Shown here piece after piece: positions 11,266 through 15,696 of a stretch of DNA of 50,015 nucleotides (its first letter is position 1; every line of letters begins with the position of its first letter). Location of the stretch: NCBI GenBank assembly GCA_003221005.1, contig QHTZ01000080.1, positions 1 through 50,015 on the forward strand. Reading direction: 5' to 3'. The position numbers were made by a program, and so were the translations under genes. The notes beneath the pieces were generated by a model that was not told the DNA's origin, did no database searches, and worked only from the letters and a program-made list of their open reading frames with translations. The DNA comes from Gemmatimonadota bacterium. Lineage in GTDB: Bacteria; Gemmatimonadota; Gemmatimonadetes; Gemmatimonadales; GWC2-71-9.

Positions 11266-11868
11266 ATGTCCGTCCGCCGTTTCCGGATCCCGCTCGCATT
11301 GTTCGCCAGCGCGATCGCGGCAGCATTGAGTTGCGGGGATCCATCGCCGGCTGGGGTCAGCCTCCTGAGGCCAGTCCTCCAGAAGGGAGGCAAGGACTCG
11401 TCAACCTCAACGTCGACCACGACGTCGAGCAAGACCGGCCTGGTGCGCTGCGGGCAAACGTATGACTCCGTCACGAAGCTGATTGGACCCAGGGGCGACA
11501 CGCTGCGCGTTGGCCCCCACATTTTCTGGGTCGATTCGCTGGTCCTCGCCGACACCGTCCGCATCACCGCAGTGGCGCCCACTGACACTGTCCGCTGGGT
11601 TCGCTTCCGACCCGACGGACTCAGCTTCCCGCCTAACGCCGTCGACGTGTCGAACGGAATGAGCTCCGGTGCGCTCCTCTATACCAACTACAAAGATTGT
11701 GGCACGCCGTTGAGTGCTACGTTGCAGATCGCCCAGGTCAGCGACTCACTGACCATCCTGGGGTACCTGCAAACGTTTGTCCAAGCCAGAAAGAACTCCT
11801 GGAGTCAAGCGAATCAATATGTCATCGCGTTGCTGCCGCATTTCTCGAACTACGCCCTTGCCTGGTAG
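11266..11868 (+). CDS. Lipoprotein B1: ZU5-like, C-terminal HF-SNYALAW
   Basis: ATG 11266 with GGAGA RBS; lipobox AALS-C; LIGPRGDTLRVG...RFRPDGLSFP; ends LLPHFSNYALAW. Confidence 0.85.
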   Translation: MSVRRFRIPLALFASAIAAALSCGDPSPAGVSLLRPVLQKGGKDSSTSTSTTTSSKTGLVRCGQTYDSVTKLIGPRGDTLRVGPHIFWVDSLVLADTVRITAVAPTDTVRWVRFRPDGLSFPPNAVDVSNGMSSGALLYTNYKDCGTPLSATLQIAQVSDSLTILGYLQTFVQARKNSWSQANQYVIALLPHFSNYALAW

Positions 11869-11909
11869 GACTGGCGTTGCCCTCTAGAGCCCGTTCTTAA
11901 GGAGGAGAT

Positions 11910-12524
11910 GTGTTGAGACCGCGACTCTGGTGGCCGCTCGTGATCCTGCTGGCGGTCGGGGGCTGCCGCGACGTGGCAGCGCCGCTCGCCGGGCATAGCT
12001 TTGCCGGTCCCGAGCTCGAGGTGCTGGACGGGCTGCACATCCTGCAGCAGTCGCCGACCGCGCCCCCGCTTGAGACCTACCAGGTGTCGTTCTGGGCTCG
12101 CCATAACCGGGAAACCACGGTCGCGGTAGACTACCAGTCCGGCCAGCCGTTCATCCGTTTCCACATCCCCAAGTTCGGGTTGAAGTGGGCCCCCAATGGG
12201 GCGCGTTTGTGGGGCGGCGACTCGGTCTTCATCACGCTGACGCTCGATACGCTCAACCTCGCCGTCGATTTCCAGCCATCCGGCGTGGTGTTTTCCAAGG
12301 TGTTCGCGCCGCAACTGGTGATTTACTACGAGAATGCGAATCCGGATCTGAACGGCGACGGGGTCGTCGACGACAGCGATCAGACGCTGGCGCAGCAGCT
12401 GACCATCTGGGGCAATTCCACGAATACGCAGGGCTGGTTCAAGGTAGTGTCGAAGAGCGACACGACGCAGCAATACGTCGTGGGTGACATCTACCACTTC
12501 TCTCAGTACGCGATCTGTTGGTAG
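11910..12524 (+). CDS. Lipoprotein A2: ZU5-like, Ca-binding loop, C-terminal HF-SQYAICW
   Basis: AAGGAGG RBS; lipobox VGG-C; FQPSGVVFSK; DLNGDGVVDDSD; ends IYHFSQYAICW. Confidence 0.87.
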   Translation: MLRPRLWWPLVILLAVGGCRDVAAPLAGHSFAGPELEVLDGLHILQQSPTAPPLETYQVSFWARHNRETTVAVDYQSGQPFIRFHIPKFGLKWAPNGARLWGGDSVFITLTLDTLNLAVDFQPSGVVFSKVFAPQLVIYYENANPDLNGDGVVDDSDQTLAQQLTIWGNSTNTQGWFKVVSKSDTTQQYVVGDIYHFSQYAICW

Positions 12525-12544
12525 CCGGGGCGAGAGGACCGAAC

Positions 12545-13183: not shown

Positions 13184-13198
13184 AGGGGGAAGCCCACG

Positions 13199-15208
13199 AT
13201 GCCTACATCGTCACTCGTAGTCGACAAAGCCCGGCAGCTCGTCGCGGCCGGGCACCACGCCGAGGTCGTCGAGTACCTGGGCGCACGCGCGGGGAGTGAG
13301 CTCGAGGATTCGCCGAGCCTCGCGTTGCTGTACGGGACCGCGCAGGCGCGGCTCGGGCGGCATACTGAAGGGTTGCGGTGGCTGGACCGGGCCCTGGACC
13401 AGGCGCGCCAGCGGGACGAGCAGGCGATCGAGCGGCGCGTGCTCAACGCGCGCGGCGCGCTCGCCCTCGTCAGCGGGCGGATCGACGAGGCGGCGGACTA
13501 CTTCACGCAGGCCCTCATGGTCGCAAGCGGCGAAGGCGACCACACCATGGCTGGTCGCTGCTCCAACAATTTGGGCATCATCAGCAACATGCGGGGACGG
13601 CACGCCGAGGCCATCGGATCCTGGGAGGTCGCCATCGCGGCGTTCGAGCGGGCGGGTTTGCGAGAGGGCGTCGCCGCGTGCCGCCACAACCTGGGGATCG
13701 CGTACCGGGAACAGGGGGCGCTCGACCGCGCGCTGGTAGAGGCCGACCGGGCCGTCGTGGAAGCCGAAACGGTCGGGGACGACACGCTGAAGGCGCTGGC
13801 GCTGCGGGGGCGAGCGGAGATCCGCGCAGTCGGGGGCGAGCTCGAGCTGGCGCGGCGCGACCTGGCCCAGGTGCGGGAGATTCGCGACCGCCTGCCCAAT
13901 CCCGTGGGCGAGGCCGAGGATCGCCGTGTCGCAGCGTCGCTGCTGGCGGCCGACGCCCACTCGGCGGCTGCTGAGGGGATGCTGCGCGACGTGATCACGC
14001 GGGCGGAGGCACACGGGCTGCCTCAGCTGCTGGCCGAGGCGACGCGGGACCTGGCCGTGGTGCTGCGTGGGACCGGGCGAAACCCCGAAGCCCAGGAGGC
14101 TGCGCGGAAGGCGAGGACGATCTTCGCCCAGCTGGGAGCCGAAGGGGAAATCCGCAATCTCGCCCGGCAGGACTGGGACGACGATTTCGCGGCCGAGCTG
14201 CGGCAATCGCTGGCGCCGCTCCACGCGGCGCAGGAGCTGGCCGACGCGGGGCGCTACGCCGAGCTCCTGACGTATTTGCGCGTGCGCCCGCAGGACGAGC
14301 TTGAGCAGTCGCCCATGCTGGCCCTGCTCTGCGGTATCGGCCACAGCCGGCTCGGACGCCTAGACCTGGGCCGGCGGTGGGCCATGGTTGCCCTAACGCG
14401 GGCGCGGGTGTTGGGGGATCGAGCGCTGGAGGTGCGGGGACTCAACGTGTGCGGGGTGATCGCGGTGGAGCGGGGTGGCATCAGCGAAGCCACGGATTTC
14501 TTCGCGCAGGCGCAGGAGGAGGCGATGCAGAACAACGATATGGCGGCGGTCGGGCGGTGCGCCAACAACCTCGGCGCCATCGCCAACATGCAGGGAGATT
14601 ACGGCCGCGCCGTGGGGGCGTACACCCGAGCGATCGCCGCGTACCAGCAGGCCCGCTACCACCGCGGCATCGTCGAATCGCAGCACAATCTCGGGATCAC
14701 GTACCGCGAGCAAGGGCGTCTAGACCAAGCGATGCAGGCCGCCGACGCAGCGGTGCGGGAGGCCGAGCGCCTGGGCGACCGGCAGCTCAAGGCCCAGGCT
14801 CTCGCCGGTCGGGCGGAGACCCTCGTCGTATGGGGTGAGCCCGAGGTCGCGATCCGAGAAGCAGAGCGTGCGTTGGCGCTGCACCGTGAGCTCAAGGATG
14901 CCGTCCTCGAGACCGAGGACCTCCGGATCCTTGCCGTGGGGTTGGGCAGTGCTGGCAGGACGCAAGACGCCGAAGACGTGCTGCGGGAGGTGATCGACCG
15001 CGCGACGCGGCACCAGCGGCCCCTGCTCGTCGCCACCGCGCAGCGCGACCTCGCGCATTTGCTGGCGCGTAAAGGCGACGTCTCGCTGGCGAAGCAGGTG
15101 GCGCAGATCGCCCGCGCGGCGTTCGACCGGCTGGGGGCGAAGGTGGAGATCGAGAAGCTGGACGCGTTGCTCCGACGTGTCGCCTACAAGCAGGAGTGTC
15201 GGCAGTGA
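13199..15208 (+). CDS. Cytoplasmic TPR protein 2 (669 aa), close paralog of TPR protein 1
   Basis: Same start (MPTSSLVVDKAR), same QDWDDDFAAELR linker, and collinear TPR motifs with 7668..9659. Confidence 0.9.
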   Translation: MPTSSLVVDKARQLVAAGHHAEVVEYLGARAGSELEDSPSLALLYGTAQARLGRHTEGLRWLDRALDQARQRDEQAIERRVLNARGALALVSGRIDEAADYFTQALMVASGEGDHTMAGRCSNNLGIISNMRGRHAEAIGSWEVAIAAFERAGLREGVAACRHNLGIAYREQGALDRALVEADRAVVEAETVGDDTLKALALRGRAEIRAVGGELELARRDLAQVREIRDRLPNPVGEAEDRRVAASLLAADAHSAAAEGMLRDVITRAEAHGLPQLLAEATRDLAVVLRGTGRNPEAQEAARKARTIFAQLGAEGEIRNLARQDWDDDFAAELRQSLAPLHAAQELADAGRYAELLTYLRVRPQDELEQSPMLALLCGIGHSRLGRLDLGRRWAMVALTRARVLGDRALEVRGLNVCGVIAVERGGISEATDFFAQAQEEAMQNNDMAAVGRCANNLGAIANMQGDYGRAVGAYTRAIAAYQQARYHRGIVESQHNLGITYREQGRLDQAMQAADAAVREAERLGDRQLKAQALAGRAETLVVWGEPEVAIREAERALALHRELKDAVLETEDLRILAVGLGSAGRTQDAEDVLREVIDRATRHQRPLLVATAQRDLAHLLARKGDVSLAKQVAQIARAAFDRLGAKVEIEKLDALLRRVAYKQECRQ

Positions 15209-15696
15209 AAGTCGTCCGTCTCCCCGTGGTCGCGCTGGTCGCCGTGGCGCTGGCGTTTGCGTGCGAGCGCTCGGACCCCGCCGCCCCTAGGCTGCTCGCG
15301 AACCTGGCCAAGACCGGGGGGCTGCTGCCATGCAAGCCGCTCGGCTACGACTCCGCCACGCAACGGATCGGCCCTGCGGGCGGGGTGCTCAAGATAGCCA
15401 AGTACAACCTTGTCATTCCCGCGGGCGCGCTGGTCGCGGCAGTGAGCATCACTGCGGTGGCGCCCTCGGACACGGTGAACCGGGTCGAGCTCCGGCCCGA
15501 GGGCCTCGCCTTCAGCCGACCCGCCGTCCTCACGATGAGCTACGGGAACTGCAAGGTGATCCCGCAGTCCAAGCAGATCGCCTACACCACCGACTCCTTG
15601 GTGATCATCCAGTTCGTGCCTTCATCGGACAGCCCGATGGCCAAGCTCGTCACCGGGGAGCTGAGTCATTTCTCGAACTATGCGCTGGCGTGGTAG
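15205..15696 (+). CDS. Lipoprotein B2: ZU5-like, C-terminal HF-SNYALAW
   Basis: GTG 15205 overlaps the TPR2 stop (GTGA), AGGAG RBS; lipobox AFA-C; IGPAGGVLKIAKYNLVIPAGAL...ELRPEGLAFSRPAVLTMSYGNC matches the ZU5 pattern; ends LSHFSNYALAW. Confidence 0.87.
   Translation: MKVVRLPVVALVAVALAFACERSDPAAPRLLANLAKTGGLLPCKPLGYDSATQRIGPAGGVLKIAKYNLVIPAGALVAAVSITAVAPSDTVNRVELRPEGLAFSRPAVLTMSYGNCKVIPQSKQIAYTTDSLVIIQFVPSSDSPMAKLVTGELSHFSNYALAW

Follow-up and report, generated by a model that had tools for sequence, protein, structure and literature searches.

Why should several small lipoproteins, encoded close to each other and diverged in most of their length, stop at almost the same short peptide? This question is raised by a stretch of 50,015 nucleotides from a Gemmatimonadota bacterium (GenBank assembly GCA_003221005.1, contig QHTZ01000080.1, positions 1–50,015), the whole of which is called the window below. 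It contains five paralogous lipoprotein genes of two classes, A1, A2 and A3 (class A) and B1 and B2 (class B). In a preliminary description of this DNA, four of the five proteins were said to end exactly seven residues after the dipeptide HF, and the heptapeptide was taken for a released signal or a tethered agonist or, alternatively, for a structurally essential last beta-strand.

In our opinion, the answer probably lies in the domain itself. The proteins would be lipid-anchored modules of the ZU5/GAIN-like type, which cut their own chain within HFS, between F and S (HF|S), and keep the heptapeptide as the last strand of the domain. The arrangement, a single domain of autoproteolytic type that ends right after its motif, is new and undescribed so far. 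It is an architectural variant of a known autoproteolytic superfamily, found within a conserved regulatory cluster.

The C-terminal tail in the window and in homologues

In a six-frame scan of the window, HFS seven residues before a stop codon, in an open frame of at least 198 amino acids, was found at 11839, 15667, 12495 and 13154 only. The count of four out of five was right, as the fifth paralogue, A1, has 14 residues after HF and Cys replacing Ser. Both B1 and B2 end with HFSNYALAW, and their tails differ at four nucleotides, all of them synonymous third positions, with no non-synonymous change (CAT TTC TCG AAC in both genes, then TAC GCC CTT GCC in B1 and TAT GCG CTG GCG in B2, then TGG TAG in both). 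A2 and A3 both end with HFSQYAICW; 29 of 30 nucleotides are the same, and the single change, ATC/ATT, is again in a third position. Outside the tail the bodies have diverged, as had been described, with an amino-acid identity of 40% for B1/B2 and 54% for A2/A3.

The tail of B1 and B2 is their sole nine-codon segment, out of 157, with identity of all nine residues (9/9), and its codons agree in 5/9 cases, equal to the background value of 0.47 for identical residues. Because codon identity stays at background, purifying selection is indicated, and gene conversion as a source of the identical tails was ruled out. Between A2 and A3, nine of 196 such segments are identical in 9/9 residues, so the tail is less exceptional there than in B1/B2; its codon identity is 8/9 against a background of 0.71, and gene conversion is again unnecessary. 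Strong purifying selection on the tail, which had been proposed earlier, is borne out by the B1/B2 codon pattern and by the nucleophile position in the homologues considered below. The ending TGG-TAG, also pointed out at that time, is indeed present in all five genes of the window; in the family it is a mere bias, and it was dropped as a rule. TAG closes 63 of 97 family genes versus 59 of 179 long open reading frames of the same loci, these related sequences being non-independent.

Of the 105 homologues of B2, 96 end with HFS plus six residues, and the remaining nine look like fragments. Among the best 120 of 376 homologues of A3, 117 end in the same way, one ends with HFC plus six residues and two show in-register tail duplications. 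A profile search of 1.84 billion representatives gave 5104 matches at E ≤ 0.001 (399 at E ≤ 1e-30), which are clusters at 50% identity, and tails were read for the best 150 of the 5104. The 148 new proteins among these 150 comprise 135 with the terminal motif (132 HFS, 3 HFT), two with His replaced (Q, D), five with extended or altered ends and six that are fragment-like or frame-shifted. When the 105 B homologues, the best 120 A homologues and the 148 proteins of the profile search are pooled, 353 of 373 proteins end with H-F-[S/T/C]-x-Y-A-[VIL]-[AS]-[WYF].

Within these 353 proteins, His is found in 349, Phe in 352 and Ser, Thr or Cys in all 353 (S 349, T 3, C 1). The motif pattern admitted Ala and Gly as well where the nucleophile stands and left the His position free; neither Ala nor Gly occurs among the 353. 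Replacement of Ser across homologues, which had been suggested as a check, is thus confined to Thr and Cys. The residue following Ser is free to vary (E, N, D, R, T, Q, G, S). The last residue is W in 321 cases, Y in 21 and F in 11, the selection pattern having demanded one of these three. Extended ends are scarce in the close clade (P0250, P0346, P0350). Three candidates for fused or long forms (P0226, P0252, P0245) were rejected as over-extended start calls in high-GC DNA, and the protein search contained no longer forms among proteins of 378–2000 amino acids, which is weak evidence.

The family is abundant and unannotated. In addition to the 5104 clusters, the B profile has matches in 119 of the 301 genomes sampled from the phylum, which represent 60 of 127 genera (G057 and G182, both unpublished, enter these tallies and no other part of the analysis), and wherever the source names these proteins, they are called 'hypothetical protein'.

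The heptapeptide had also been described as class-specific and of fixed length. It is not class-specific, because paralogues of one genome have almost identical tails; the whole family shares a single motif, with variation mainly at its second residue. As to length, seven residues are kept throughout the close clade, but not in 15 distant relatives from other families of the phylum, whose tails have 7 (5 proteins), 8 (6), 10 (2), 16 (1) or 19 (1) residues and a terminal Trp in only one case. These relatives carry HFS (11), HLS (3) or QLS (1), so that H-[FL]-S is retained in 14 of 15. It follows from the longer tails and the loss of Trp that the seven-residue end is a feature of the clade, not a requirement of the family. 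Judging by sequence, H-hydrophobic-Ser followed by a strand appears to be the constant feature, and the exact seven-residue form ending with Trp appears to belong to the close clade.

Particular variation is found in the A1 type. Its orthologues have a Cys nucleophile in 7 of 10 cases and tails of 7 residues (4), 8 (1), 14 (4, A1 of the window included) or 19 (1), the longer ones being made of in-register repeats of the strand unit. The orthologues of loci L011, L036 and L041 carry HFC.YEVSF.E..VSW, and in that of L040 the unit is tripled. Similar tail duplications are present in two class-A database proteins, P0129 and P0216, and one locus has HVT and HFT.

A relative of another kind is a lipoprotein of 1067 amino acids (locus L044, 3693–6896, genome G167) that has a lipobox and, at its N-terminus, a ZU5-like domain; HFS is internal and is followed by about 900 residues giving weak PKD/Ig matches. 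Its layout looks like that expected for a releasing autopeptidase. This order of anchor, ZU5 and cargo suggests that the small lipoproteins may be a version that lost the cargo.

Domain fold and the position of HFS

The lipoproteins have 163–256 amino acids (about 17–22 kDa), an N-terminal lipobox and a chain that stops at the strand. They were called lipoproteins on the basis of an invariant Cys after a hydrophobic N-terminus in alignments: Cys23 in 59 B sequences (consensus ...ALSC) and Cys27 in 57 A sequences (consensus LAGC). Outer-membrane beta-barrels were considered and rejected, since the models are sandwiches matching ZU5, and the sole likeness to a beta-signal is the terminal aromatic residue.

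The assignment of the domain to a ZU5/GAIN-like fold is very likely on the strength of the structural models. In the AlphaFold model of B2 (predicted local distance difference test score, pLDDT, 85.7) a disordered linker is followed by an all-beta domain. Its top 14 Foldseek matches in the PDB are all ZU5 domains (ankyrin, UNC5b, ZO-1; E 2.4e-5 to 9.5e-4) with a template-modelling score of about 0.52 on the full query, 40 disordered residues counted, and the GAIN domains of BAI3 and CD97 come next (ranks 16–17, E 0.018 and 0.029). For A3 (pLDDT 86.2) the best match is again the ankyrin ZU5 domain, at E 1e-2, weaker than for B2, and GAIN is found at rank 29. HFS of B2 (residues 158–160) lies in the turn between strands 151–158 and 161–165, the chain ending at residue 166, and the tail strand is integral to the sandwich, with pLDDT >90. 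In the A3 model, HFS is likewise located in the turn before the last strand. Homology of the two classes, with tail aligned to tail, is shown by hhalign (probability 98.9, E 2.4e-17).

Sub-threshold Pfam ZU5 matches were found in 34 of 59 class-B members (best E 6e-4), and in one Atlas cluster ZU5 is found on 50% of the members. The NCBIfam scan gave nothing meaningful, and no Nup98-family Pfam match was obtained for the window proteins or the class members scanned. Weak Pfam matches to GspH (12 of 59 members), Saf-pilin, CBM_4_9 and, for A3, Dockerin were taken as noise. The Dockerin_1 match of A1 is sub-threshold too (E 7e-4). A dockerin-type calcium loop is nevertheless visible in class-A sequences, where it sits at the place of a conserved Cys of class B. 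This dockerin/EF-hand-like loop, NANPDLNGDGVVD..D, lies inside the class-A sandwich (12980–13020 in A3, 12330–12370 in A2, 7170–7210 in A1). Class B has two invariant Cys residues (46 and 119 in B2), which may form a disulfide.

By these features taken together, each lipoprotein would consist of the Cys that carries the lipid anchor, about 20 residues of disordered linker and a single ZU5/GAIN-B (MAIN-like) beta-sandwich, with the chain stopping exactly where the last strand of the domain stops and H-F-S placed in a tight turn before it. In line with the precedent of PIDD, CARD8/NLRP1, Nup98, GAIN and MAIN, the Ser, Thr or Cys would attack the preceding peptide bond by an N-to-O or N-to-S acyl shift. 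We infer that the chain is broken between Phe and Ser after export and that the peptide is retained; the products would be a lipid-anchored body and the heptapeptide S-x-Y-A-[VIL]-[AS]-W, initially held in place as the last beta-strand. Two constraints would act jointly on the tail: H, F and S would be kept for catalysis, and Y, V/I/L and W, which alternate with small Ala/Ser, for strand packing. For want of cargo the only releasable product would be the peptide itself. The earlier analogy with tethered agonists proves to rest on homology, the tail being the last ZU5/GAIN-type strand, which is the agonist strand in adhesion G-protein-coupled receptors (GPCRs). Its alternative, the essential last beta-strand, also holds, and both views are compatible.

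A number of points weigh against self-cleavage. The ankyrin, UNC5b and ZO-1 domains, which are the best Foldseek matches, are non-cleaving members of the group. Conservation of the strand residues would be expected for folding alone, and a change of Ser to Cys or Thr is also conservative for a small buried residue. His is replaced in two proteins with the terminal motif (Q, D) and in the distant relative with QLS, and the tails of distant relatives vary in length and have lost the terminal Trp. The Pfam ZU5 model PF00791, which spans only the N-terminal part of the domain (97 positions), gives B2 13 bits, the gathering cut-off being 21 (E 0.13), and a sequence profile search of the PDB gave nothing relevant, with a chance match to mevalonate kinase at E 0.49. 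Finally, HFS is equivalent to the known cleavage sites in the models by secondary-structure position, not by residue-level superposition.

It is possible, though in our estimate rather unlikely, that no cleavage occurs at all. The domain would then be a non-catalytic ZU5-like binding module, where HFS and the tail are kept as a buried turn and last strand, and the protein would end at a domain boundary. The structural matches just mentioned are consistent with this, and so are the alternation of hydrophobic and small residues in the tail, typical of a buried strand, the nearly identical tails of paralogues from the same genome, and the ends of the distant relatives, which lie 0–12 residues past the strand and have no conserved last residue. 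However, non-cleaving UNC5b is without the motif, with Leu-677 at the position of the essential Phe (PMC3210808), whereas H, F and the nucleophile are each present in about 99% of the 353 proteins. Moreover, the nucleophile switches to Thr or Cys alone, a whole orthologue group has moved to Cys, and the same motif is internal in the relative with large cargo. Self-cleavage with retention of the strand is preferred here.

The fixed end might also have quite another meaning, that of a C-terminal recognition tag: another protein would recognize the free aromatic end, ...A-[VIL]-[AS]-W-COOH. Possible readers are a factor for sorting or assembly at the outer membrane (cf. the beta-signal of outer-membrane proteins), a PDZ protease of the periplasm or, before export, a TPR chaperone of the cytoplasm, and TPR domains commonly bind C-terminal peptides. 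An aromatic last residue in 353 of 353 proteins is in agreement with a tag, though the pattern itself required W, Y or F, and so is the scarcity of extensions in the close clade. On the other hand, a sandwich and not a barrel is predicted, the tail is an integral strand of it, and the terminal aromatic is lost in distant relatives that retain H-[FL]-S and a TPR neighbour. No gene of PDZ or BAM type was noticed among those of the cluster, and the tag must be regarded as very improbable.

The gene cluster around the lipoprotein arrays

The surroundings of the lipoprotein genes were compared in 34 related loci, all but three of which are labelled Gemmatimonadota/Gemmatimonadales. They contain 109 family genes in total, up to eight per locus, and at least one partner gene is present in 33 of the 34. 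A TPR-HD-GYP gene occurs in 27 loci and has a B gene immediately upstream in 19 of the 34, and a double-TPR gene is also found in 19. A sigma-54 activator gene is present in 13 loci, always upstream of the lipoprotein array. A TPR gene adjoins the distant relatives as well (8 of 8), four times with an HD domain and twice with a sigma-54-type AAA+ gene. Because the tandem arrays are packed with TPR and TPR-HD-GYP genes, the gene order places the lipoprotein module in a conserved regulatory cluster leading, as predicted, from the envelope to cyclic di-GMP (c-di-GMP) and sigma-54.

The window has these genes in the order A1, double-TPR, sigma-54 activator, B1, A2, A3, double-TPR, B2 and TPR-HD-GYP, all on the forward strand (Table 1), and from B1 onward the genes overlap or are separated by gaps of at most 41 nucleotides. 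The TPR-HD-GYP protein is likely a c-di-GMP phosphodiesterase. A sixth paralogue, B3, ending with HFSDYAIAW, was found on another contig of the same genome (C45), also directly upstream of a TPR-HD-GYP gene; this pair is preceded by a 440-amino-acid open reading frame with a receiver domain (L002, 2031–3353, reverse strand; Response_reg E 7.7e-13). Each of the two double-TPR proteins of the window (7668–9659 and 13199–15208) is an internally duplicated module of about 330 residues, which shares about 30% identity with the TPR region of the HD-GYP protein.

Table 1. Positions of the lipoprotein genes, their tails, partner genes and neighbouring genes in the window
Feature	Position	Strand	Remarks
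A1, class-A ZU5-like lipoprotein	6612..7382	+	Lipobox FAAGC; dockerin-like calcium-loop insert; homologous to A3 (E 3.3e-29); start probably an internal ATG
A1 tail HFCWYELAYDTYAVSW + TAG	7332..7382	+	Cys nucleophile; 7-residue strand unit doubled
Double-TPR protein, 663 aa	7668..9659	+	Two homologous halves; no signal peptide; Pfam TPR_12 E 5.5e-33
Sigma-54 enhancer-binding protein (AAA+)	9669..11039	+	Pfam Sigma54_activat E 2.9e-66
-24/-12 sigma-54-type element GGAACGGTTCCTGC	11199..11212	+	54 nucleotides upstream of the B1 ATG
B1, class-B ZU5-like lipoprotein	11266..11868	+	Longest open reading frame from 11221, profile match from 11266; E 3.6e-15 to B2
B1 tail HFSNYALAW + TAG	11839..11868	+	
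A2, class-A ZU5-like lipoprotein	11910..12524	+	E 2.6e-64 to A3
A2 tail HFSQYAICW + TAG	12495..12524	+	
A3, class-A ZU5-like lipoprotein	12518..13183	+	Start likely ATG at 12545, agreeing with the 212-aa database form P0106
A3 tail HFSQYAICW + TAG	13154..13183	+	
Second double-TPR protein, 669 aa	13199..15208	+	Pfam TPR_12 E 1.5e-37; overlaps the B2 start
B2, class-B ZU5-like lipoprotein	15196..15696	+	Database form from 15205
B2 tail HFSNYALAW + TAG	15667..15696	+	
TPR-HD-GYP protein	15703..17361	+	Pfam TPR_12 E 5e-42, HD_5 E 1.2e-31; begins 6 nucleotides after B2
GroEL-like chaperonin	4067-5701	+	By eye
DUF1097 membrane protein	17505-17972	+	Pfam
DUF4382 lipoprotein-like protein	18180-18950	+	Pfam

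A -24/-12 element, GGAACGnTTCCTGC, was found in each of the 12 regions examined (the window and 11 loci), where it stands upstream of the first lipoprotein gene; besides that of the window, these sites include L011 2209, L012 5826, L023 4752, L036 5784 and L041 5795. The conserved variant, GGAAC-N5-CTGC, emerged only from the comparison of loci, the canonical sigma-54 sequence TGGCAC-N5-TTGC with up to two mismatches being uninformative (33 matches versus 45 expected). Only two exact matches of the element are present in the 2.79-Mb genome, a rarity that indicates specificity only, as the pattern was derived from the same sites. The second match (contig C136) has no co-oriented downstream gene and was taken as chance. 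We infer that the arrays are organized as operons and depend on sigma-54.

The N-terminal part of the sigma-54 activator, about 130 residues (9669–10060), gave no Pfam Response_reg match, and the usual phospho-acceptor Asp is absent from it by eye. These two observations suggest that the activator may be controlled by a partner protein, perhaps a TPR protein, and not by phosphorylation.

Eight of the 34 loci have, inside or beside the cluster, an SBP_bac_5 gene of the OppA/DppA family (Pfam E 4.4e-63), namely L030 (3876–5570), L019, L021, L022, L029, L031, L032 and L037; in L030 it and the sigma-54 activator gene overlap at the end of the latter. The genome of the window has two SBP_bac_5 genes, neither of them in the window, and the orthologue heads an ABC-importer operon on contig C118.

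With such neighbours, the peptide might itself be a message, an idea that appears improbable to us. The heptapeptide would be the functional product of self-cleavage, released to the periplasm or the medium when the sandwich unfolds, is pulled or is degraded, then taken up by an Opp/Dpp-type system and bound by the TPR proteins. Both the HD-GYP enzyme, a c-di-GMP phosphodiesterase, and the sigma-54 activator would be under the control of the TPR modules, and the activator would drive the array, which would close a feedback loop. The adjacency of lipoprotein and TPR genes is old, as it is seen in close loci and distant relatives alike, but regulators commonly adjoin their targets, and this would explain the synteny without any peptide. 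In favour of the idea, the TPR proteins of the window have no signal peptide, and their longest open reading frames leave no room for an N-terminal extension. Binding-protein genes at 8 of 34 loci, compared with two in the genome of the window, point in the same direction; nevertheless, the window itself is without such a gene, and it is missing from 26 of 34 loci, of which many are truncated at contig ends. The tail is the sole possible 'cargo' and is homologous to the agonist strand of adhesion GPCRs, whose synthetic 7-mer TYFAVLM activates GPR56 (PMC8326393). Diversified pheromones, however, are unlike these peptides, which barely differ across paralogues or genera, and the terminal Trp and the fixed length are lost in distant relatives.

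Apart from the question of a peptide, the tight linkage to the sigma-54/TPR/HD-GYP cluster means that the family is probably the mark of an uncharacterised pathway from the envelope to c-di-GMP in this phylum, which is common in soil. The chaperonin, DUF1097 and DUF4382 genes listed at the end of Table 1 were not tied to the cluster in any of the other loci.

Comparison with known systems

Self-cleaving ZU5, GAIN and MAIN domains are understood as joints between two large parts, which come apart under force or upon degradation. A receptor may be joined in this way to its ectodomain, an inflammasome effector to its repressor, and a surface enzyme to its anchor. The lipoprotein family is a minimal device consisting of an anchor, a domain and a seven-residue strand, and its only product, if it is cleaved, would be the strand whose counterpart is the agonist of adhesion GPCRs in animals. 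It offers a compact system for asking about the role of the conserved strand alone, as well as a small soluble model for the HF|S reaction.

Nothing specific to this lipoprotein family was found in the literature searched, and for ZU5 domains of gemmatimonads only the paper of Zhang et al. (2012) was found. In that paper ZU5, GPS and the Nup98 domain are united as one autopeptidase superfamily, with bacterial members in toxins and large surface proteins, and bacterial ZU5 is predicted to be a 'releasing peptidase', often N-terminal to a large secreted protein (PMC3482391). The relative of 1067 amino acids fits this layout. The ZU5 proteins of polymorphic toxins differ from the window proteins, which contain no RHS repeats, toxin or cargo.

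In self-cleaving ZU5 domains (PIDD, UNC5CL, FIIND of CARD8/NLRP1), HFS or SFS stands just before the last strand, as in the lipoproteins, with Ser as nucleophile and a buried Phe, and the nucleophile of self-cleaving domains may be Ser, Thr or Cys (PMC3210808). PIDD, UNC5CL, CARD8 and NLRP1 are cytosolic eukaryotic proteins with a UPA and a death-fold effector beyond the strand, where the lipoproteins have nothing. Nup98 is a eukaryotic nuclear-pore protein and belongs to a different overall context. After its cleavage, a short C-terminal tail stays bound as a strand. Its autoproteolytic domain resembles the lipoproteins in HFS and the buried Phe (as cited in PMC3210808).

The MAIN domain of Bacillus subtilis YfkN and other bacterial MAIN domains are cut in a beta-turn, between the F and the S of HFS, as established by Edman degradation, and their fragments stay associated through the strand (Brogan & Rudner, bioRxiv 10.64898/2026.05.12.724683). 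An exported beta-sandwich and a conserved HFS in a beta-turn appear to be common to these domains and to the lipoproteins, which were compared with them by description only. MAIN proteins have a mean size of 158 kDa and consist of a signal peptide, cargo, the MAIN domain and a wall anchor at the C-terminus (same preprint). The lipoproteins do not share this architecture, as they have an N-terminal lipid anchor, are several times smaller, carry no cargo and end at the strand. Gemmatimonadota has 0 occurrences in the text of the preprint, whose list of about 15,000 proteins might hold Gemmatimonadota or stand-alone forms.

The likeness to the GAIN/GPS region of adhesion GPCRs consists in H-hydrophobic-[S/T] in the turn before the last strand and in the strand itself, [S/T]-x-aromatic-A-[V/I]-x-x (cf. 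TYFAVLM), which after the cut serves as the tethered agonist of these receptors (PMC8326393). In contrast to them, the lipoproteins are without the GAIN-A helical subdomain, the seven-transmembrane receptor and N-terminal adhesion domains, and ZU5 structures match the lipoproteins better than GAIN structures do.

The proposal of an imported peptide likens the lipoproteins to a 'free' GPCR tethered agonist and to the RRNPP systems (Rap-Phr, PlcR-PapR, NprR, AimR). In RRNPP systems the mature peptide is the C-terminal 5–10 residues of an exported precursor, its uptake proceeds by an Opp-type system and the sensors are cytoplasmic TPR proteins. Likewise, TPR proteins adjoin the lipoprotein genes, and in part of the loci an Opp-family binding protein does so. 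RRNPP precursors are processed by secreted proteases, whereas the lipoprotein precursor is folded and would cut itself; RRNPP outputs are helix-turn-helix or phosphatase domains, and the lipoprotein cluster has HD-GYP and a sigma-54 activator; the lipoprotein host is diderm, and the tail peptides are not diversified, unlike those of RRNPP. By analogy, the lipoproteins could be self-processing pheromone precursors, and it would be the first such peptide-signalling system in a diderm phylum, a view that we consider quite doubtful. It would mean that a free 'Stachel' is released on envelope stress or turnover and imported by Opp, and that its readout by TPR proteins sets c-di-GMP and sigma-54 transcription, a chain of events to which we assign a low probability. 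If this reading were true, the family would be a bacterial counterpart of the tethered-agonist logic of adhesion GPCRs, with the agonist strand alone as the product.

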